A DNA stretch of 64,000 nucleotides from the NCBI GenBank assembly GCA_019057385.1, contig JAHQJS010000004.1, positions 160,001-224,000 of the forward strand, given 5' to 3'. The notes below the pieces were generated by a model. It was not told where the DNA came from. It ran no database searches and saw only the letters and a program-made list of their open reading frames with translations. Numbering within the stretch: the stretch's first letter is position 1; the number at the start of each line of letters is the position of its first letter. Positions 1 through 11,460 of the stretch are shown one piece after another. A program made the position numbers and the translations under genes. The DNA comes from Candidatus Borrarchaeum weybense. GTDB taxonomy: Archaea > Asgardarchaeota > Sifarchaeia > Borrarchaeales > Borrarchaeaceae.

Positions 1-1716
1 AAGACGAAAGTGAATATTATACGAGAAAAGGCCTACAATGAGGTTATTTCAAAGATTGATGAAATCGATCTGAATCAAGAGAAAATTCTCCCAATAAATT
101 TACCTACTGGATGCGGCAAAACACTAACTGGTTTATCGTTTGCCCTTAAATTGAGAGAAAAAGTAGCGAAGCAACTCGGTTTTACTCCTAAGATTATCTA
201 TTCCTTGCCATTTCTTAGCATAATCGACCAAAACGCTAAGATTTTTGAGGATATTCTAAAACTTAAATATGGAAAAATTCCTTCCAATTTATTCCTAATA
301 CATCATCACCTTGCAGATATTGAGTATAAAGAGATTAGAGATGGCGAATTAGATATTGAAGAATTAAGCAGGTCTTTATTGCTTACTGAGGGATGGCATT
401 CAGAAATAGTAATAACCACTTTTGTCCAACTATTCCATAGTTTGATTACAAACAAAAACAGAGCAACAAGAAAGTTTCATAACATAATCAATTCTATAAT
501 TATCCTTGACGAGATCCAATCAATTCCGCATAAATATTGGCTTCTAATTAACAAAATCTTAAATTATTTAGCAGAGAATTTTAATTGTTGGATAATCTTA
601 ATGACTGCTACTGCACCACTTATTTTTGGATATGATGAAATCAAAGATCTAGTTACAAATAGAGATGAATACTTCAACATTTTTAATAGAGTTATCTTCA
701 CCTTCAACTTAAACCCCATAAACTTTGAAGACTTTAAACATGAAATCTTTAACAGAATATTGAATGATGACAGCAATATGTTGGTTGTATTGAATACTAT
801 TAATTCGTGTAAAGAGTTATACGAATTTTTAAAGGAAAAAATCATGCAAATTCAAAAGGAAAAAAAGAATATCGAAATAGATGATGATGGCATTGTCAAT
901 TTTCTGGAAATTGAACTAATCAACCTATCTACTCATATTCTTCCAAATTATCGGTTAAGAAGAATAGACAGAATCAAAGATAAAGACAACAAAAAAAGAA
1001 AAATAATTGTAACAACTCAGTTAGTCGAAGCTGGAGTTGATATCAGCGTAGATGTAGTTTACAGAGATTTTGCTCCTTTAGATTGTCTAATACAAACTGC
1101 TGGACGATGTAATAGAAACAACGAAAAAGATAAGGGTCAAGTTAATATTGTTGTTTTGAGGGACGATAAAAGACCTTATAATTCATATATTTATGATCCG
1201 ACTCTCATAAACGCAACAAAAGAAGTTATCAGAAAATTTGGCAAAATGGTTCAGGAAAAAGATTTTGCTTTAAATTCTGTTGAAAAATATTATAAACTCA
1301 TGACAGAACGCGGATCTAAAGACGTGTCTAAGAATTTATTTGAGTCGCTTACTAAGATGGACTTCTCAGAAATATCCAAGTTTAATTTAATACAAGAAAA
1401 GTTACCCTCAATTTCTATATTTGTCGAGATCGATGAAATTGCTGAAAATGTTAGGGAGAAAATGGAAGATATTGTTGAAAATAAAAAAGAAAAATTTGAA
1501 CTAAAACTAGAATTGTTAGAATTAAAAAAGCAAATAGCACAATACACAATTCAAGTGGGATTCTCTAAAAAGCTGGAAAATATGATCTTAAATCTGAAAC
1601 CTATTGATAATCTAGAAGAATTTAGATATATCAAAAAGAGCAAGTTGAAAGAGTATTACGATATAGATTCAGGCATCAAAACTAAAGATGCTGGAATTTC
1701 TGGTTATATAGTGTAA
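1..1716 (+). CDS. cas3: CRISPR-associated helicase Cas3 (type I, I-B-like), 5'-truncated by the window edge
   Basis: SF2 motifs PTGCGKT, LPFLSIIDQ, IILDEIQ, MTAT, TQLVEAGVDI, QTAGRCNR. The frame is open back to base 1, so the HD nuclease domain probably lies upstream. Confidence 0.92.
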   Translation, partial: KTKVNIIREKAYNEVISKIDEIDLNQEKILPINLPTGCGKTLTGLSFALKLREKVAKQLGFTPKIIYSLPFLSIIDQNAKIFEDILKLKYGKIPSNLFLIHHHLADIEYKEIRDGELDIEELSRSLLLTEGWHSEIVITTFVQLFHSLITNKNRATRKFHNIINSIIILDEIQSIPHKYWLLINKILNYLAENFNCWIILMTATAPLIFGYDEIKDLVTNRDEYFNIFNRVIFTFNLNPINFEDFKHEIFNRILNDDSNMLVVLNTINSCKELYEFLKEKIMQIQKEKKNIEIDDDGIVNFLEIELINLSTHILPNYRLRRIDRIKDKDNKKRKIIVTTQLVEAGVDISVDVVYRDFAPLDCLIQTAGRCNRNNEKDKGQVNIVVLRDDKRPYNSYIYDPTLINATKEVIRKFGKMVQEKDFALNSVEKYYKLMTERGSKDVSKNLFESLTKMDFSEISKFNLIQEKLPSISIFVEIDEIAENVREKMEDIVENKKEKFELKLELLELKKQIAQYTIQVGFSKKLENMILNLKPIDNLEEFRYIKKSKLKEYYDIDSGIKTKDAGISGYIV

Positions 1717-1750: not shown

Positions 1751-2581
1751 TTATCCCTTGTTTCGGCTATACTGCATTCGAGAATAGTTTATTACACCGA
1801 GACCTGCAGTCCTTTTGATGCCTACATTGCTGTACTCTCCAAAATTTCCTAATACGTCCAACCATAGTGCATAAGGATCTTCAGAATTTCTTACAACGTA
1901 ACTACATCGGCCAGTACATCCAACAAAGGGAATACCTTTGCCTAGGTTGACCTCTCTTGTTACCAAGTCATAATCCCTTGCATAAACATTATTTGATACA
2001 AAAGAATGTAATTGATCCACGTCAACTTTTGTTTCTGGAGCATATTTATTCCACAGATTCGCTAAATTTGAGAAGAGTAGCCTTGGCTCAGGAAATATCA
2101 AAGGAAACTTTACTCCTATCAAACTGAACTGAGTAGGTGTAACGAATGAGAACCCAAAGCGAGTAACTTTTTTAGCAGCTTCTACGAGTTCTTGATATGT
2201 ACACCTATTAATCTGAATATTCACAAGACTGAAGAAAACATCGTTTAGTTGTACCCGAAGAGGTTTATCGCTAAAAAAAATATTTATTAATAAATTGACA
2301 AGCTCTTGGTCAAAAAAACTCATGGGCATAGTGAAAGTTGTGCCTTCCTTTATCTCTATTGCACCAGTAATCCTTTTTCTACGAAGATCTTTTGAAAAGA
2401 GTGCCCCGACACAATAAGGGCGAATATTTGATGTGTCATGTAATTTTTTCGCTAAGGTTATATTTTGCGATTTAATCAGATCCAAAAATGCTGCTCGAAA
2501 GAGGTGGCCAATAAACGGTGGTAGTACTCCCTCTGTGTTTGCCATAAGAAGAAACTTAATTCGTGTAATCAATGTTATCAC
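1751..2581 (-). CDS. cas6: CRISPR pre-crRNA processing endoribonuclease Cas6
   Basis: RAMP features FVTPTQF, PEPRLLFSNL, FVGCTG and the Gly-rich C-terminal loop VGIKRTAGLG. Adjacent to the array and convergent with cas3. Confidence 0.9.
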   Translation of the reverse strand: MITLITRIKFLLMANTEGVLPPFIGHLFRAAFLDLIKSQNITLAKKLHDTSNIRPYCVGALFSKDLRRKRITGAIEIKEGTTFTMPMSFFDQELVNLLINIFFSDKPLRVQLNDVFFSLVNIQINRCTYQELVEAAKKVTRFGFSFVTPTQFSLIGVKFPLIFPEPRLLFSNLANLWNKYAPETKVDVDQLHSFVSNNVYARDYDLVTREVNLGKGIPFVGCTGRCSYVVRNSEDPYALWLDVLGNFGEYSNVGIKRTAGLGVINYSRMQYSRNKG

Positions 2582-2760: not shown

Positions 2761-2947
2761 ATTTTAAAAGAATTCCTTAAGTAACAAGGATTGAAAGGAT
2801 AGAGTTATTCTGATCAGGGAAGAAGACGCGCCTGAATTGCAAAAGAATTCTTTACCTAATAAGGATTGAAAGATTTCTAAAGTTTCAAACATTAATTTTG
2901 CATCTTCTGCGTCGCAAAAGAATTCCTTACGTAATAAGGATCGCCAG
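2761..2947 (+). CRISPR. CRISPR mini-array: 3 degenerate 37-nt repeats and 2 spacers of 38 nt
   Basis: R1 2761-2797 ATTTTAAAAGAATTCCTTAAGTAACAAGGATTGAAAG; R2 2836-2872 ATTGCAAAAGAATTCTTTACCTAATAAGGATTGAAAG; R3 2911-2947 GTCGCAAAAGAATTCCTTACGTAATAAGGATCGCCAG (3' end decayed). Spacers 2798-2835 and 2873-2910. Internal TCCTTA/TAAGGA hairpin and ATTGAAAG 3' handle. Confidence 0.9.
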
Positions 2948-4987: not shown

Positions 4988-6223
4988 TTAATTTGGCAAG
5001 TTAAGGGCTTCTTTTACTTGTTTAAGTGCGCTTTCTCTCTCGTTCCAGTTTACAAAAACCCGGATATTTGAGTTTATAGTGAGAAAACCATAGAGGTTCA
5101 TTTCCGTAAAGGGGTAACTTATCCGCTCAATAACACCCGGCGTAGTCTCAAGATCTCGTCCACTAATCGTTATAAGTGCTAAATCATTATGATTGGTTAT
5201 TGCCTTGCCAATTTTGGCTTCGATCATTTTTTTATGAAGTATCTCAACTAAAGAACCAGAATCTGTTTCAGGGATAGTTGCATAGAATATTACAGATCCA
5301 CTCTCTAGCGATGCACCGACAAGTTCGCATCCCATCTGTTGTATTTCATCGATAAATAAGTGGATATTTTTGGCTTTAACGACCTCTTTGCCGATTATAG
5401 TAATCATCTGTAGCCTTTGATTGAAAAGCGAGGCATGAAGGTCAGGGAATACCGCACCACTAATAATCGTTCCTCCCTCAGAGATATGTCCGTTAGAGAA
5501 TCCAACAATGCGGATATTCATGTCTTTTGGCTTAAATCTCAATGCTTTATTATGGATGACTTTTGCTCCTGCGGAAGTTAAGGACATGACCTCTTCAACA
5601 TCCAAATGTTCTATAAGCGCTGTTTCATGGATCTTCTTAGGGTCACCTGAAAAAACGCCCTCCACATCTTTGACTAAAATCACTTCAGAAGCGTTTAAAC
5701 AGTTACCAAGTATCACCGCAGTCGTATCCGCACCACCGCGTCCTAATGTCGTGATTTTATCTGTAATTCGGTCCTTGCCTAAAAATCCTGGAATAACAGG
5801 GACTTTATTTTCAGCAAGAAGTGGCAGGATGTGTTCTTGTATCGCCTGCTGCGTTTCCACCATATCTGGCTCAGCATCTCCATGTCTTGAATTCGTGTAG
5901 ATGGGCCACGAATCAGAAACAGGATCAATTAAAGCAGCATCCATATTTTTGCTAGTGAGTGAACTCATCATCAAACGTGCGCTTGTGCGTTCGCCCATAG
6001 CGAGAATATCATCCATCTCATGTAATTTAACTTTTCCGTTGGTGCAAGATTGTGCGAGCGAGAGGAGACTGTCCGTCATGCCGTTCAAAGCCGATACTAC
6101 GACTACAAGGCCTTTTACCTGAGCAAGTTCATTAAGAATGTGATCAGCAGCCTGTCCTATTGCTTCACCAGAGCCTAGACATGAACCTCCAAACTTTACC
6201 ACAACGATAGAATCTTTAACCAT
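4988..6223 (-). CDS. lysC: Aspartate kinase with C-terminal ACT domains
   Basis: VVKFGGS, VVVSA, GERTS, TTLGRGGADTTA, KDVEGVFSGDP. SD GGAGG at 6235-6231, ATG at 6223. Confidence 0.93.
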   Translation of the reverse strand: MVKDSIVVVKFGGSCLGSGEAIGQAADHILNELAQVKGLVVVVSALNGMTDSLLSLAQSCTNGKVKLHEMDDILAMGERTSARLMMSSLTSKNMDAALIDPVSDSWPIYTNSRHGDAEPDMVETQQAIQEHILPLLAENKVPVIPGFLGKDRITDKITTLGRGGADTTAVILGNCLNASEVILVKDVEGVFSGDPKKIHETALIEHLDVEEVMSLTSAGAKVIHNKALRFKPKDMNIRIVGFSNGHISEGGTIISGAVFPDLHASLFNQRLQMITIIGKEVVKAKNIHLFIDEIQQMGCELVGASLESGSVIFYATIPETDSGSLVEILHKKMIEAKIGKAITNHNDLALITISGRDLETTPGVIERISYPFTEMNLYGFLTINSNIRVFVNWNERESALKQVKEALNLPN

Positions 6224-6253
6224 CAAAAAACCTCCAGAAAATCGCTTTATCCG

Positions 6254-6310
6254 CTAGAAGCGGAAATAGCTATAAAAGCTAAAGCTAGTAAAATAACTCC
6301 AAGAGGGCAT
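6254..6310 (-). CDS. Putative aromatic-rich leader peptide MPSWSYFTSFSFYSYFRF
   Basis: ATG 6310 to TAG 6254. 9 of 18 residues are W/Y/F. Ends 30 nt before the lysC ATG and lies downstream of a TATA-like box. Confidence 0.5.
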   Translation of the reverse strand: MPSWSYFTSFSFYSYFRF

Positions 6311-6352
6311 TGCATATGCGTCAGAAAACGAAGAAAGCTTGTATTCTAGTTC

Positions 6353-6372
6353 TTTAAATAACATTTCATTCG
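6353..6372 (-). promoter_or_regulatory. BRE/TATA-like promoter for the leader-lysC-aroA'-aroB' operon
   Basis: Minus strand CGAATGAAATG-TTATTTAAAG, 43-51 nt upstream of the leader ATG. Confidence 0.45.
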
Positions 6373-6522
6373 AAAGCCAAGAGGTGTAACCTAAGCAATC
6401 CAATGGTGTCATCTTAGTAAAAATTAGTCCTCCGCACCACAGACACCTCTCATGCGAAACAATAGGCAACACCCTATTTTATATTAGTACGCTCTCTATT
6501 TCATATCTATCTTATAAACCTT

Positions 6523-7056
6523 ATGTTGGTTAGCTTTGGAGAGCTAATTATTCTGGTGGTGAGCTTTTTAAAAATCGAGTTAGAAGTTGAACTTACTGAC
6601 AAACCGGGAGAACTAGTAAGGTGTTTAGAACCCATATCTGCTCAAGGAGGAAATATTTTACAAGTTATTCACCATAGGTCATTAGATGTTGGAAAAGGAG
6701 TAGCACCTGTTTCAATTCATTTTGAAGTTGAAAACATCGATGTGATTGAAGATATTAAGAATGCCATCGAGCAGCAGGGTGTGCATGTAGTAAAATGGGA
6801 ACAAGAGTTTGTAGGGTTCAAGAAAATTGTGCTTCTTATCGGACATGTTTTTCAGAAGGATATCACAGATACAATTATTCGTCTTCTTGACAGTGGTGTT
6901 TTAGTGAATGAAGTTAATGCAAAAATCACGCAGAAAGAGGAAGTTTCAACCGTGAAGTTTTCGATTGTAGGTGATACCGAACAGAAGATTCAGGAAGCCA
7001 TGAAGCTTTGTAAAGAAATCTCAATGGAAAAAGGGCTATTCCTAATCAGAGGTTGA
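6523..7056 (+). CDS. ACT-domain protein (putative allosteric partner of homoserine dehydrogenase)
   Basis: ELTDKPGEL...GGNILQVIH ACT motif, second ACT-like half LIGHVF. Overlaps the hom start. True start may be slightly downstream. Confidence 0.85.
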   Translation: MLVSFGELIILVVSFLKIELEVELTDKPGELVRCLEPISAQGGNILQVIHHRSLDVGKGVAPVSIHFEVENIDVIEDIKNAIEQQGVHVVKWEQEFVGFKKIVLLIGHVFQKDITDTIIRLLDSGVLVNEVNAKITQKEEVSTVKFSIVGDTEQKIQEAMKLCKEISMEKGLFLIRG

Positions 7057-8069
7057 AGTCAATGAATATTGCGTTAGTAGGTTTTGGAAGTGTTGGAAAA
7101 GGCGTTGCACAAGTATTTTCAAAGAAACAAGATCATCTAAGACAAAAATATGATCTTTCCTTTTCATTTAAGGGAATCTTCACAAGTAAAGGCGCATTCT
7201 TAGATCCAAATGGATTAGATTTGCAGAATATATTGAACACAAAAGATCTAACTGCTCACCCTTCATGGAAAAAAGATCTATCTTTCATGGAGTCTATCGA
7301 TGATCTTGATGTGGACCTTGTAATCGAAGTTACGCCTACAAATATCGAGGATGGAGAGCCAGGAAAGTCGCATATAATCTCTTCAATAAAGAAAGGATGT
7401 GATGTTGTCACAGCAAACAAAGGTCCTCTTGTTGTAGCTTTTAATGAACTTACACAACTAGCTCAACAAAATGATTCTATTTTAAGATATGAAGGAAGTG
7501 TAGCAGGCGGAATCCCCGTATTTAATTTAGTACGTAAGTCCTTGCAAGGTAATACCATTCATTCGCTAAAAGGAATTTTAAACGGTACATCTAACTTTAT
7601 TCTCACTCAGATGACCTATGAAAGAACGTCTTTTAAAAGCGCATTAAAAACGGCCCAGGAGTTAGGATATGCAGAGGCAGATCCCACATACGATGTCGAA
7701 GGTATCGATGCTGCAAGTAAAACCGTAATACTAGCGAATGGGCTATTTGGCATGAATAAAGGTATCGATGATGTTTACATTCAAGGTATCACTAAAGTGA
7801 CTCCAGAAGCTATTGAACTCGCTGGCAATGATAACTTTCTCATCAAACATATCGCATCCATTGAAGATGGACAAATTGAGGTTGCACCAAGACTCATTCC
7901 AGTTACTTCCACTCTTGCGGTGAATGGAACGCTCAATGTAATATCACTGCAAACAGATCTTGCAAAAGAAATAACAATTATTGGTAGAGGTGCGGGTGGT
8001 GAGGAAACCGCAAGTGCAATATTGAGCGACGTTATCAATATTCATTGTGCACGAACTACTCTATCCTAA
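7053..8069 (+). CDS. hom: Homoserine dehydrogenase
   Basis: GFGSVG Rossmann motif, VVTANKGP, YEGSVAGGIP, GILNGTSN, ELGYAEADPTYDVEGIDAASK, GRGAGGEETASA. Confidence 0.95.
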   Translation: MKSMNIALVGFGSVGKGVAQVFSKKQDHLRQKYDLSFSFKGIFTSKGAFLDPNGLDLQNILNTKDLTAHPSWKKDLSFMESIDDLDVDLVIEVTPTNIEDGEPGKSHIISSIKKGCDVVTANKGPLVVAFNELTQLAQQNDSILRYEGSVAGGIPVFNLVRKSLQGNTIHSLKGILNGTSNFILTQMTYERTSFKSALKTAQELGYAEADPTYDVEGIDAASKTVILANGLFGMNKGIDDVYIQGITKVTPEAIELAGNDNFLIKHIASIEDGQIEVAPRLIPVTSTLAVNGTLNVISLQTDLAKEITIIGRGAGGEETASAILSDVINIHCARTTLS

Positions 8070-8182
8070 CGTGAACTACCATCTAACAAGTTGAATGATT
8101 TCCTGAATCATTCATCTCTCAGTGGAGCAGATAAAGTTAGGGCTCGTCAACAACTTTGTGAAAAATAAAAAATTGAAGGAAA

Positions 8183-8219
8183 ATGAAAAAAGAGCATATG
8201 TTATAATAAGAATTGAAAG
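8183..8219 (+). repeat. Degenerate inverted copy of the CRISPR repeat (anti-repeat)
   Basis: ATGAAAAAAGAGCATATGTTATAATAAGAATTGAAAG: 23/37 identical to the consensus, 15 of the last 16 nt identical. Separated from the solo repeat by 33 nt. Confidence 0.5.
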
Positions 8220-8252
8220 TAAAAAGAAGAGAACGGATGAGAAGAGCCTGTT

Positions 8253-8289
8253 ATTTCAATCCTTATTACGTAAGGAATTCTTTTGCAAC
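8253..8289 (-). CRISPR. Solitary intact CRISPR repeat (same family as the array)
   Basis: Minus strand GTTGCAAAAGAATTCCTTACGTAATAAGGATTGAAAT (37 nt), matching the array consensus. Starts 2 nt after the TAG of the 8292-9830 gene. Confidence 0.9.
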
Positions 8290-8291
8290 CT

Positions 8292-9830
8292 CTAAAAGAG
8301 GTCTTCCTCGCTTGTTCTCTTCCTCTTAAGACCTTTCGCCGCTCTTGCGCTTGGAGCCGCAGCCTTTTCAGCTATTTCAGCTTCTTCTTCATCAATCTCA
8401 GCAGCTTGATCCTCTAAGACATTTAACGCTTCTTCTTGGAATTGAATACCATCTTGTTTCGCAAGTGTTTCTTTAAGTTCCTTCAATCTTTCTTTAGCTT
8501 CTTCCGTTTTCCCTTCGTAATAACTCCCACCTGCTGCTTGCACCACATTTGTAGTAACAACTCTTGCATCATATGCTTTATTAAATTCAACTTCTTCTTC
8601 AACCACTGCTGAACGTGAAGTCAATACTCGCAATCTTTTGTTTCCTTCTGAATCAATATATGTGACCTGAGCTTGTATAGGAACTTCTTTTTTCTTGACC
8701 TCTTCTTCTGCTGTCTCTAGTTTCTCTAGTTCAAAGAAGACTTCTCTGTCTTCAGTAACAGCACCAACTTTCATAGGTGCAGGTGTAGTAAATGTTGTAT
8801 CTGTTACTACTCTTATGTTCACATCTCGACCTAGATATTCCCTCTTTCTTAATTGTTCAAATGCCTTTTGTACCTCAGCCATCGTAACGTAAAATATGTC
8901 TCCTCCAGTTTCGTCTGCTAATCTACCGAGTACGTCCAAAGCCAGTCTGCTTGAATCGTCTTCTGCCGCAATTCCCACAACTTCGCAGTTGACCTGTTTA
9001 TCAATACATTTTTTTGCCATCTCTTTGTAGAACTTCTTTCCAGTAGCTGAACTTTCTAAATTGCCTAATCCCTCATTAGCTAGACCATCAGTAAGCAAAA
9101 TCAATCTTCCACCACCATCAACCCGCCCTAGAAGAGTTATTCCTCCAAGGAGCGCTGGACCCAATGAAGTATAATTTAAGGGTCTAAGTTGAGAAATCGT
9201 ACTTATCCATTTCTCGGCAGTGTCAGATATGGGTGAAAAATCGAGTTTTGTTTTAGTAAACGCTTTTTCTATACCATTTATTGAATGCAGTACATCTCCT
9301 TCTAGTTCAAGTACTTTTTCACCATTTGCATTAAAGAGAAACACTTCTGTGCTAAAAGCTATTAAAGTAAAACGTGAATGTGGAGCATTCATCTTAAGAT
9401 CTTTTAGCGATTGAGTTAAAGAATGCTTAACCGCCTCTAGTTTTCCATCATCCATTGAGCCAGAGACATCTATAACGGCGACAATATATTCCTTTGTTCC
9501 AGTTCCGATTTTGGTTTCTACTGTGATATCATCTTCTGGTTTCTTTTCAATGATCCATTCAATATCATCACCAATATCTTCTGGTAATGTAACATCAGCG
9601 GCGATAATATTCAGGGTTCCGCAAAATTCGCAATTCCAACTGCGACCTAATTTGGTCGTCTCAATTAAACTGGCTTTAGTCAAGATACCTCCGCAACTTG
9701 TACAGACAACAGGAATCCCTTCTATAACCTTCTCTTTTTTCTTTAAACTATGAAAGTCAAGCGATGTTACGTAGGGTAGTTTTGTATCTTTGCCTTTCTT
9801 CAGAACATTGCCAAAGCTTTTTTTAAACAA
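8292..9830 (-). CDS. Sec23/Sec24-type zinc finger + von Willebrand factor A domain protein
   Basis: CTSCGG...WNCEFCGTLN Zn finger; vWA MIDAS DVSGSM, TSLGPAL, LILLTDGLANEG; acidic helical C-terminus. Start set at TTG 9830 after an SD (GAGGT); the ORF track extends to 9965. Confidence 0.82.
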   Translation of the reverse strand: MFKKSFGNVLKKGKDTKLPYVTSLDFHSLKKKEKVIEGIPVVCTSCGGILTKASLIETTKLGRSWNCEFCGTLNIIAADVTLPEDIGDDIEWIIEKKPEDDITVETKIGTGTKEYIVAVIDVSGSMDDGKLEAVKHSLTQSLKDLKMNAPHSRFTLIAFSTEVFLFNANGEKVLELEGDVLHSINGIEKAFTKTKLDFSPISDTAEKWISTISQLRPLNYTSLGPALLGGITLLGRVDGGGRLILLTDGLANEGLGNLESSATGKKFYKEMAKKCIDKQVNCEVVGIAAEDDSSRLALDVLGRLADETGGDIFYVTMAEVQKAFEQLRKREYLGRDVNIRVVTDTTFTTPAPMKVGAVTEDREVFFELEKLETAEEEVKKKEVPIQAQVTYIDSEGNKRLRVLTSRSAVVEEEVEFNKAYDARVVTTNVVQAAGGSYYEGKTEEAKERLKELKETLAKQDGIQFQEEALNVLEDQAAEIDEEEAEIAEKAAAPSARAAKGLKRKRTSEEDLF

Positions 9831-10107
9831 TCTGTTTACCTCTTTTTGTTTCCAGTATTTTAATCCTCGGTTAAACAAGTTGTTAAATGTTACGTAATTG
9901 AAGAGTGCCTCTAAAAAACATATTGAAGTCGCTCTTTTAGCTCGTTGATGATCTTTCTCTTTCACGTTCTATATCTTGCAAAAAACTCTTATGTAAACGT
10001 GCACGAAACATTCAAAAATCGAAATGTTAATTTCGAGATGATTAAGATCGATCATTCAGAGATTCGTTAAAAATACATAACTAAACAGACTCTGATAGTG
10101 TATCAAA

Positions 10108-11460
10108 ATGATAATGCTTCATTCTACTAACCTTAATGCTCCGCAGGTGGATTTCAAAGAGGCAATCCTCACAGGACAAGCCCCGGATAGAGGATTATAT
10201 ATGCTAAATGAAATTCCCAGGCTAGACGATGCAGAAATGTTCTCTTTCAGCGATTTAGAATTAACACAAATTGCTTATAAGGTCCTTTCAAGAATTATTG
10301 GAGATTTGATCCCGAAAGAGCAGCTGGAAAGCATTATAAACAGTGCCTTAAATTTTGAAATTCCCATACATTATGTTAGCAATCACGATTACATGATGTA
10401 TATAGACCAAGGACCGACATGTAGTTTCAAAGATGTTGGAGCTCGTATGCTCGCAAGATTAATGGAATACTTTCTTGAAGTTGAAAATAAGAATGTTATA
10501 ATAATCACAGCAACCAGTGGGGATACAGGAGGGGCGGTTGCTCAAGCTTTTTACGAAATGAACCGAATTCAGGTCGTTGTACTGTACCCAAAGAATGAAG
10601 TAAGTAACTTGCAAAGAAAACAAATGACTACTTTAGGAAAGAATGTTACTGCAATAGGAATCAATGGGAAGTTTGACGATTGTCAGAAATTTGCAAAAAA
10701 TGCATTTGCTGATAAGGATCTAGATCTTAATTTAACTTCAGCAAATTCAATTAATTTTGGACGACTTTTGCCACAAACTCTCTATTATTTTTTGGCCTAC
10801 TCACGTGTAGCAGAAGACTTAGGTGAAAAAGTAATTTTCTCTGTGCCTTCAGGAAATTTTGGAAATTTACTAGGAGGGTTAATTGCTTTTAGGATGGGAT
10901 TACCCGTTAAGAAATTTATTGCTGCCGTGAATGAAAATGACGAATTTCCTCGCTATGTAAACAGCGGAACCTATCAAAAGGTAGAGCCCTCAAAAAACTG
11001 TCTCTCTAGTGCAATGAATGTGGGCCATCCATCAAATCTTGCACGTCTCATTGAAATGTATGGAGGTCAGATTGACGAGATAGGAATAGTTCACAAAGAT
11101 CCAGATCTTGAGAAGATTCGTGATGATATTTATACGATCTCCATAACTGATGAACTAACTAAACAAACAATTAAAGGTTTTTATGAATCATATAGTAAGA
11201 TCATTGAACCCCATGGTGCTGTTGGCTGGGCGGGTCTTCAAGCATATAGAACAGATACTCCAAAAGATAAAAATGTCAAATCAATCTCAATAGAGACTGC
11301 AGATCCAGCTAAATTCCCAGAAGCAATTGTATCATTGATAAATATAACCCCAAAATTACCTCAATGCTTAGAAATAATTAATCAAAAGGAAGAGTTCCCC
11401 AATCCCGTAGAAATCAATACATATGAAGATTTCAAAAAATATCTGCAATCAAATTATTAA
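10108..11460 (+). CDS. thrC: Threonine synthase (bacterial/fungal long type)
   Basis: GQAPDRGLY, GPTCSFKDVGAR (PLP Lys), ATSGDTG, SANSINFGR, PSGNFGN. Confidence 0.93.
   Translation: MIMLHSTNLNAPQVDFKEAILTGQAPDRGLYMLNEIPRLDDAEMFSFSDLELTQIAYKVLSRIIGDLIPKEQLESIINSALNFEIPIHYVSNHDYMMYIDQGPTCSFKDVGARMLARLMEYFLEVENKNVIIITATSGDTGGAVAQAFYEMNRIQVVVLYPKNEVSNLQRKQMTTLGKNVTAIGINGKFDDCQKFAKNAFADKDLDLNLTSANSINFGRLLPQTLYYFLAYSRVAEDLGEKVIFSVPSGNFGNLLGGLIAFRMGLPVKKFIAAVNENDEFPRYVNSGTYQKVEPSKNCLSSAMNVGHPSNLARLIEMYGGQIDEIGIVHKDPDLEKIRDDIYTISITDELTKQTIKGFYESYSKIIEPHGAVGWAGLQAYRTDTPKDKNVKSISIETADPAKFPEAIVSLINITPKLPQCLEIINQKEEFPNPVEINTYEDFKKYLQSNY

Follow-up and report, generated by a model that had tools for sequence, protein, structure and literature searches.

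A solitary type I-B CRISPR repeat and an inverted native segment between hom and a Sec23/24-like gene in an Asgard archaeon

In the genome of the uncultured Asgard archaeon Candidatus Borrarchaeum weybense (4.18 Mb in 8 contigs; here G000), the convergent genes for homoserine dehydrogenase (hom) and for a Sec23/24-trunk/vWA-like protein (the vWA gene) enclose an intact, solitary repeat of the CRISPR (short palindromic repeats that are clustered and regularly interspaced) type I-B class, which faces a partial inverted copy of itself across a 33-bp spacer-like segment. Here, we describe this element within a stretch of 64,000 nucleotides (G000:C4:160001-224000; the window, whose positions are used wherever no contig is named), compare it with orthologous alleles of the genus, and weigh how it may have arisen. 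We favor, with moderate confidence, the view that it is a scar left by capture of repeat sequence at a protospacer of the organism's own, which erased the protospacer-adjacent motifs (PAMs) and was afterwards inherited and exchanged by recombination.

Anatomy of the hom-vWA intergenic region

The site is composed of the following features, given by window position and strand.

8292-9965, minus strand: gene of the Sec23/24-trunk/vWA-like protein, 557 aa (Pfam Sec23_trunk, 41 bits with a cut-off of 27; VWA)
8253-8289, minus strand: intact solitary 37-nt type I-B CRISPR repeat, beginning 2 nt past the stop codon of the vWA gene
8220-8252, no strand: 33-bp spacer-like segment, the inverted form of the orthologous native vWA-hom intergenic sequence
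8204-8219, plus strand: 16-nt inverted partial repeat, 15/16 identical to the 3' handle end of the repeat
7053-8069, plus strand: hom, convergent with the vWA gene, in a synteny kept in all relatives

The repeat lies where an earlier interpretation made from the letters alone (the sequence-only reading) had placed it, on the strand of the vWA gene (8289-8253, minus) and directly behind that gene's TAG stop codon at 8294-8292 of the minus strand. There is no oligo-T between stop and repeat, and the vWA mRNA must read into the latter. The protein itself also matches Sec23_BS and zf-Sec23_Sec24 of Pfam weakly, and its orthologues in the genus are 87-90% identical.

The two repeat pieces face each other in inverted orientation, no leader accompanies them, and on each strand a repeat handle end abuts the PAM-proximal end of the 33-mer. 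Their handle ends are of different kinds: the intact repeat ends in the T-type ATTGAAAT of the main CRISPR array of this genome, the partial one in the G-type ATTGAAAG of the mini-arrays (arrays listed below). The partial repeat comprises the 3' handle end only, with the 5' arm of the Cas6 hairpin absent, and within a minus-strand RNA it constitutes an anti-repeat; by our own estimate a 15/16 match at a fixed position has a chance of ~1e-8. Beyond it, at 8183-8203, comes T-rich DNA, alignable with the relatives' native intergenic flank. A leader-like sequence upstream of the partial repeat was considered and dropped, as the similarity was A-rich and the stretch fits the native flank of the relatives better. 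The 33-mer is shorter than every spacer of the main array (37-46 nt) and is unique in G000 in a genome search that allowed up to 9 mismatches.

A misassembly, which the sequence-only reading had listed among the findings that would refute it, is ruled out: Logan contigs of the probable source run cover the whole stretch in one piece, and in two more samples of that study the contigs, with 0 differences, reach across the entire element or most of it. No flipped or native allele was seen in these samples, an observation that is uninformative since Logan contigs drop rare variants. An Rfam scan around the site gave a sub-threshold CRISPR-DR6 match on the partial repeat and a spurious one to Corona_pk3, the pseudoknot of the coronavirus 3' untranslated region (UTR); the latter, at 7909-7969 inside the hom coding sequence, scores 25.9 bits against a gathering score of 35.6 and is almost certainly due to chance.

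Native alleles, neighborhood-derived spacers and spread of the element

Where does the 33-bp segment come from? Six native alleles of the site are available, from the GTDB genomes G001, G002 and G004 and from the metagenome contigs L063, L064 and L065, on which the genomes' alleles recur. All six keep the convergent vWA/hom pair and have no CRISPR repeat there, and all six carry the 33-mer at the same spot, 27-32/33 identical and in the opposite orientation relative to both genes. Judged by this alignment, the 33-nt "spacer" is the locus's own intergenic DNA, inverted. Apart from these orthologous sites, no further copy of it turned up in 400 sampled Asgard genomes, and a viral contig collection matched neither the 33-mer nor the repeat. 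The stop codon of the vWA gene (8292-8297) is TAG in both element-bearing alleles and TGA in all native ones while the C-terminus of the protein is unchanged, a difference compatible with a shift of 1 nt at the border of a captured repeat.

The native alleles also show what stands where the element has repeat sequence. In 6/6 of them CCT precedes the protospacer in plus orientation, that is, with the partial repeat taken as its upstream repeat, and in two (L063 and G002) the 33-mer is followed by CGG, which reads on the other strand as a CCG PAM, at a distance of exactly 33 bp. The segment beside the repeat end is thus native to the locus and preceded by a PAM in repeat-free alleles, as would be expected of a self-protospacer scar. 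The PAM class CCN is supported by four other spacers of the small arrays of the locus, described below, and it has been documented as a PAM for other type I systems. In Pyrococcus furiosus, self-protospacer hotspots surround active arrays and uptake occurs downstream of 5'-CCN-3' (PMC5737086); in the type I-B system of Clostridioides difficile, adaptation uses CCN as its PAM, and interference is lost when the repeat-end AAT stands in the PAM position (PMC8406132). The native flank behind the vWA stop codon further holds GTGGCTAAAG, which matches the first 10 nt of the repeat, GTTGCAAAAG, at 8/10 positions. A resemblance of the native downstream flank to the 5' part of the repeat (13/19 in one allele) was judged to be at chance level for AT-rich DNA.

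The element lies a few kilobases from a complete type I-B locus, identified with Pfam and NCBIfam profiles, which runs directly from upstream into the window. On the plus strand it reads DUF2797 gene-cas1-cas2-cas4-cas8b-cas7-cas5-cas3, with cas6 on the minus strand; the effector proteins score 378 bits (Cas8b, TM1802/Csh1), 307 bits (Cas7/Csh2) and 132 bits (Cas5h). The type I-B assignment rests on cas8b, cas7, cas5, cas3 and cas6, on cas1-cas2-cas4, and on an array of ~37-nt repeats that end in ATTGAAA[G/T]. The components in and before the window are as follows.

1-1716, plus strand: 3' part of cas3, the last gene of a cas block begun before the window
1751-2581, minus strand: cas6 (Pfam CRISPR_Cas6, 57 bits; NCBIfam TIGR01877, 52.6 bits, just below its cut-off)
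2761-2947, plus strand: mini-array with three degenerate repeats and a leader of its own, divergent from cas6
G000:C4:142626-142740, plus strand: mini-array of degenerate repeats
G000:C4:144986-145099, minus strand: one-spacer mini-array of degenerate repeats
G000:C4:148433-152129, minus strand: main array of 49 identical repeats and 48 spacers, 7.9-11.6 kb before the window start

Compared with the main-array repeat, the solitary one has a single changed position, which falls in the hairpin loop, and it lies on the same strand as the main array. Two remarks of the sequence-only reading therefore need to be narrowed. That the solitary repeat is better preserved than any array copy is correct for the three-repeat mini-array in the window, and incorrect for the 49 identical repeats of the main array; and the repeat runs opposite to the mini-array at 2761-2947, not to the main array.

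Arrays and cas genes form part of an island of ~20 kb (G000:C4:142556-162960; it begins 17.4 kb ahead of the window and ends at window position 2960), whose content is made up of the mini-arrays, a divergent rdh-like gene, herA, a nurA-like gene, the main array and the cas genes. The third repeat of the mini-array in the window is cut short at the island border, and this mini-array has a leader motif in common with that at C4:144986-145099. G001 and G002 are without the island at this site: there, the conserved gene of its left border (C4:141146-142528 in G000), the native rdh-like gene and DHQS are adjacent. In another genome, G003, a single repeat (L051:1503-1539 = G003:C46:2292-2328) stands ~100 nt past the end of this left-border gene, in the place of the G000 mini-array C4:142626-142740, and the trailer after it begins like that of the array on the metagenome contig L067 (ACACTC). 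A search of the four other genus genomes (69-100% complete) did not recover the I-B Cas7.

Four spacers of the small arrays match sequences of this same neighborhood in other Borrarchaeum lineages, or in the island itself, and each target carries a CCN PAM.

G000:C4:145023-145062, spacer of the mini-array C4:144986-145099: first 40 nt of the rdh-like gene, 37/40 (G002) and 38/40 (L067), PAM CCA
2873-2910, spacer 2 of the mini-array in the window: DHQS gene of G002, 35/37, PAM CCA
L067:1120-1241, spacer 1 of the three-repeat array: herA of the G000 island, 36/44, PAM CCG
L067:1120-1241, spacer 2 of the same array: rdh-like gene of G001, 23/26 over the aligned part, PAM CCA

As far as these alignments show, the carrier's own copies of the matched sites are lost or diverged. 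The DHQS site of G000 itself matches spacer 2 of the window mini-array at merely 23/38 positions, and the native rdh-like gene is replaced in G000 by an inverted homologue of 38% identity. The stretch of the main array (3.8 kb, 48 spacers), compared with the four genus genomes, yielded no convincing spacer match, only matches to the repeats and one low-complexity match.

Besides G000, the element is present on L067 (Ga0180437_10005266), at 6566-6652. Its repeat there is 37/37 identical to the main-array repeat of G000, and the two elements differ by one base in the 33-mer and one in the partial repeat. Between the rdh-like gene and DHQS, L067 has just the three-repeat array, whose leader resembles that of the main array of G000, and it lacks cas genes there. 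At three-way informative sites L067 resembles G004 on both sides and G000 over ~6200-7050, a tract of ~0.85 kb centered on the element; homologous recombination has therefore carried the allele from one lineage to another. The tract is ~3-4% diverged between the two carriers, and as a single shared tract of this divergence it makes the intactness of the element uninformative about selection. Over a wider range, L067:5000-9000 compared with window 6600-10700 and with contig L047 changes identity over a few hundred bases, from 70% to 99%, a mosaic that indicates frequent homologous recombination among Borrarchaeum lineages.

A second insertion is found in the same intergenic region of G000. Directly after the hom stop codon there is one further feature.

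About 8070-8130, plus strand: truncated 60-nt 5' end of a dispersed structured element

This fragment is absent from L067 and from the native alleles, and is thus a later insertion. The dispersed element starts with GTGAACTACCATCC and has four long copies of ~280-330 nt in the genome (G000:C4:228256-228590, C4:891426-891757, C7:724870-725204 and C6:788455-788731), variants at C8:152632 and C5:309169, and a 3' module of ~100 nt that occurs ~45 times. It has no Rfam match and no adjacent transposase; ThiI-like and YfhO-like genes are its neighbors.

Formation of the element and alternative explanations

How could repeat sequence come to stand on both sides of a native segment? In the reading that we favor, the type I-B adaptation machinery would take spacers from DNA beside the arrays, and one such protospacer would have been the 33-bp vWA-hom intergenic stretch with CCN PAMs on both strands. 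From this double-PAM protospacer two spacers of opposite orientation could be drawn, whose overlap would be exactly the PAM-to-PAM distance, and the 33-mer would be shorter than normal spacers because it equals that distance. Recombination or repair between array units with the spacer and the chromosomal protospacer would then place repeat sequence where the PAMs had stood, and a conversion tract from the GTGGCTAAAG microhomology to the 33-mer would leave exactly one full repeat and delete the CCT PAM. Capture at the PAM positions would thereby account for the handle ends that abut the 33-mer on each strand, for the one full repeat on the vWA side and for the loss of the PAMs. The resulting PAM-less allele would no longer be open to attack, and it has since been handed down and exchanged among lineages through ordinary homologous recombination. 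As to the orientation of the 33-mer, the segment may have flipped between the inverted ends of the repeats and taken their terminal G and T bases along, or a pre-formed unit may have been captured in reverse by microhomology. At present, the strong stem-loop of the element and the U-runs beside it would probably set the 3' end of the vWA mRNA, and any cleavage by Cas6 would be a by-product. The anatomy of the element, the local origin and inversion of the segment, its PAMs, the sister spacers and the recombination tract are read directly from the sequences; that self-targeting drove the process, and that it worked through repeat capture, is what we infer. A literature search on recombination between spacer and protospacer returned no paper.

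Several observations weigh against this reading. The orientation of the element is the mirror image of what simple gene conversion in situ predicts, and at least one extra event, an inversion, must therefore be assumed. An array copy of the 33-mer was found neither in G000 nor in the 400 sampled Asgard genomes or five metagenome contigs, which leaves the donor array unit hypothetical, although a past copy is conceivable. The second PAM is present in merely 2/6 native alleles. The repeat is perfect in L067 and changed in the loop only in G000, as a functional guide would also show, although the small divergence of the tract deprives this comparison of power in either direction.

Simpler or larger rearrangements were considered on paper and rejected. 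Had plain gene conversion from an array unit produced the element, the native orientation would be retained and the repeats would be direct; this process cannot be the whole story. A large inversion between mini-array and solitary repeat, or between spacer and protospacer, would break the adjacency of hom and vWA or leave two 33-mers, and neither is seen. Homing of a CRISPR-associated transposon, with edge spacers that match the flanks, does not fit a locus that has no Tn7-like genes, that has cas1, cas2, cas4 and cas3, and whose 33-mer is single.

The RNA that the vWA gene is expected to produce has a predicted fold that bears on the alternatives. The repeat alone forms the usual 6-bp Cas6 hairpin (-4.7 kcal/mol). 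In a 141-nt region, in line with the sequence-only proposal that the inverted copy 33 nt further on can pair with the repeat's 3' half and compete with that hairpin, the two pieces form a stem of 16+3 bp (minimum free energy -28.3 kcal/mol, z = -3.6 against shuffled sequences). At equilibrium the predicted pair probability of the stem is 0.91-1.0 in G000 and 0.84-0.93 in L067, and that of the Cas6 hairpin is ~0; an A-to-G change in the L067 partial repeat turns an A-U into a G-U pair and retains the pairing. Folding during transcription could leave Cas6 a window of opportunity, since the repeat is made first. The inversion gives the minus strand a T5 run where the 33-mer ends, T6 runs come just after the stem, and the vWA transcript therefore probably ends there.

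The sequence-only reading had proposed that Cas6 trims the Sec23/24-like mRNA at the repeat and releases an RNA resembling a CRISPR RNA (crRNA), whose level follows the promoter of that gene, the anti-repeat being an evolved switch that gates Cas6. An intact sense-strand repeat that follows the stop codon by 2 nt, a strong anti-repeat pairing that the G-U pair of L067 preserves, and the regulatory roles known for standalone repeats (bioRxiv 10.1101/2023.03.03.530964) argue for such a switch, but we regard it as improbable. Its 33-mer is local native sequence, and no credible target was found for it: CCN followed by a 12-nt seed with <=1 mismatch occurs 0 times genome-wide for the orientation of the intact repeat and gives just 3 weak A-rich matches for the other, nothing credible lies in the cas/island region C4:140-172 kb, and the viral contigs, to which that reading also looked for targets, gave no match. 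Known regulatory mini-arrays consist of direct repeats and are directed at promoters of cas or cargo genes. Absence of the element from close relatives with the same gene order, which the sequence-only reading had named beforehand as speaking against its proposal, is what the six native alleles display; the sole other carrier, a further lineage, shares the element through one recombination tract, and its conservation is silent on selection. The origin of the element, moreover, explains the anti-repeat without design. Equally doubtful, in our view, is that the 19-bp stem, its 27-33-nt loop and the downstream U-runs were exapted, whatever their origin, and are kept without any CRISPR function because they provide the 3' end or terminator of the convergent vWA and hom genes. 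The fold is strong compared with shuffled sequences and is kept in L067, and the minus strand offers the T5 and T6 runs. Archaeal termination, in contrast, needs oligo-U and not hairpins; the native 33-mer supplies its T5 run to the opposite strand, that of hom, as this idea would allow, yet the native alleles manage without a stem and no independent conservation is seen. As its own alternative, the sequence-only reading had suggested the relic of a resident array broken by rearrangement or decay. This came closer to our result, and the locus has indeed been rearranged before, with small arrays in both orientations at C4 142.6, 145.0 and 162.8 kb, a solitary repeat in G003 beside the left-border gene of the island, and no island in G001 and G002. 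The relatives, however, have identical vWA/hom synteny and intergenic flanks that are native, the spacer is resident and not foreign, the repeat pieces are inverted and not direct, and there is no leader; with synteny intact and no sign that an array ever stood here, the comparison largely refutes a relic, which we consider highly improbable.

A more consequential alternative is that the element is an active guide cassette sitting in its own target site, as a homing or allele-guarding device. The vWA transcript would supply repeat and 33-mer, and Cas6 and Cascade would make from it a crRNA directed against native alleles that bear CCN; the element allele would itself be immune, with a repeat end in the PAM position, and a native allele cut on incoming DNA, or on another chromosome copy after DNA exchange, would undergo homology-directed repair that copies the element in. 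The expected small RNA would carry a 5' AUUGAAAU handle followed by the 33-mer. A guide-like unit does stand exactly at the orthologous site of its own protospacer, without a PAM, and its repeat is intact, predicted to be competent for Cas6 and on the strand that must be transcribed. L063 and G002 have CCG beside the protospacer of that orientation; among the native alleles the middle base of this PAM site varies (CGG, CAG, CTG), whereas the CCT of the other side is invariant. In L067 a donor-like tract of ~0.85 kb is centered on the element in a foreign background, and G000 has a complete I-B effector set. Nonetheless, we consider this reading unlikely. In the predicted equilibrium fold the long stem displaces the Cas6 hairpin completely, and a 33-nt spacer without a downstream repeat may load improperly. 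Mosaic recombination is common along L067, such that a tract including the element would arise by chance in ~1 in 5 cases, one other carrier is known, and the PAM-site variation comes from three allele classes. The search of the four other genus genomes gave no Cas7, and L067 lacks cas genes at the island site. The architecture and the PAM-bearing alleles that a homing guide calls for are thus present, next to one centered tract and a mosaicism that is general. A broader form of the idea, which we also find hard to credit, is that a guide made from the vWA promoter spreads by repair of cut native alleles or guards the adjacent CRISPR-island haplotype, and that the rdh-like, DHQS and herA spacers of the small arrays would be haplotype-guarding likewise.

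If the element is indeed a self-protospacer scar, the locus would preserve a concrete and datable trace of CRISPR autoimmunity, and of how it was resolved, in an uncultured Asgard archaeon in which arrays took spacers from their own flanks, the organism's own sites were lost or diverged, and one target became a PAM-less, repeat-flanked allele that moves between lineages. It would also illustrate that a CRISPR repeat can land in the 3' UTR of a eukaryote-signature gene without regulatory design, which advises caution in reading solitary repeats as regulators.

Relation to known systems

Elements of the CreA/CreR type have two direct repeats and a spacer with at least 10 nt of complementarity from the seed, next to a PAM, to a cas or cargo promoter (Shmakov et al., bioRxiv 10.1101/2023.03.03.530964). 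The Borrarchaeum element is like them an off-array repeat a few kilobases from a I-B cas locus, beside a spacer-sized segment and common to at least one related locus. Unlike in CreA/CreR, its repeats are inverted, one full on the minus strand and one of 16 nt on the plus strand, its spacer is the organism's own DNA with no credible seed target, and its site is a housekeeping 3' UTR.

Hotspots of self-targeting spacers near active arrays have been described in P. furiosus, and in E. coli as cited there (PMC5737086). The resemblance lies in five protospacers that are found within a few kilobases of the array locus, downstream of 5'-CCN-3'. The P. furiosus spacers, however, are laboratory acquisitions in arrays, whereas those reported here are fixed in natural genomes whose own sites are lost or diverged, and one Borrarchaeum protospacer itself bears repeat sequence.

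The solitary repeat units of viruses, known as RNA anti-CRISPRs or Racrs, are carried by viruses and plasmids (PMC10651486). As in Racrs, the solitary repeat mimics the repeat of the host array and could bind Cas6 or other Cas proteins. It differs from them in its place between the conserved hom and Sec23/24-like genes, instead of on a virus or mobile element, and in having no match in the viral contigs.

Engineered CRISPR gene drives, finally, carry a guide cassette inserted in its own target site. The locus shares with them a guide-like unit that lies in its own target and destroys it, susceptible alleles that bear the PAM, and a short tract in a second lineage. In contrast to such drives, an RNA that is made, loaded and directs cutting is hypothetical here, and the nuclease genes are at least 6.5 kb away and absent from other genus genomes in the Cas7 search. 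Should the guide reading nevertheless be true, this locus would provide the first analogue of a CRISPR gene drive in nature. Set beside all four systems, what we describe is most likely a chromosomal, two-sided, inverted repeat-at-protospacer scar in an Asgard archaeon.

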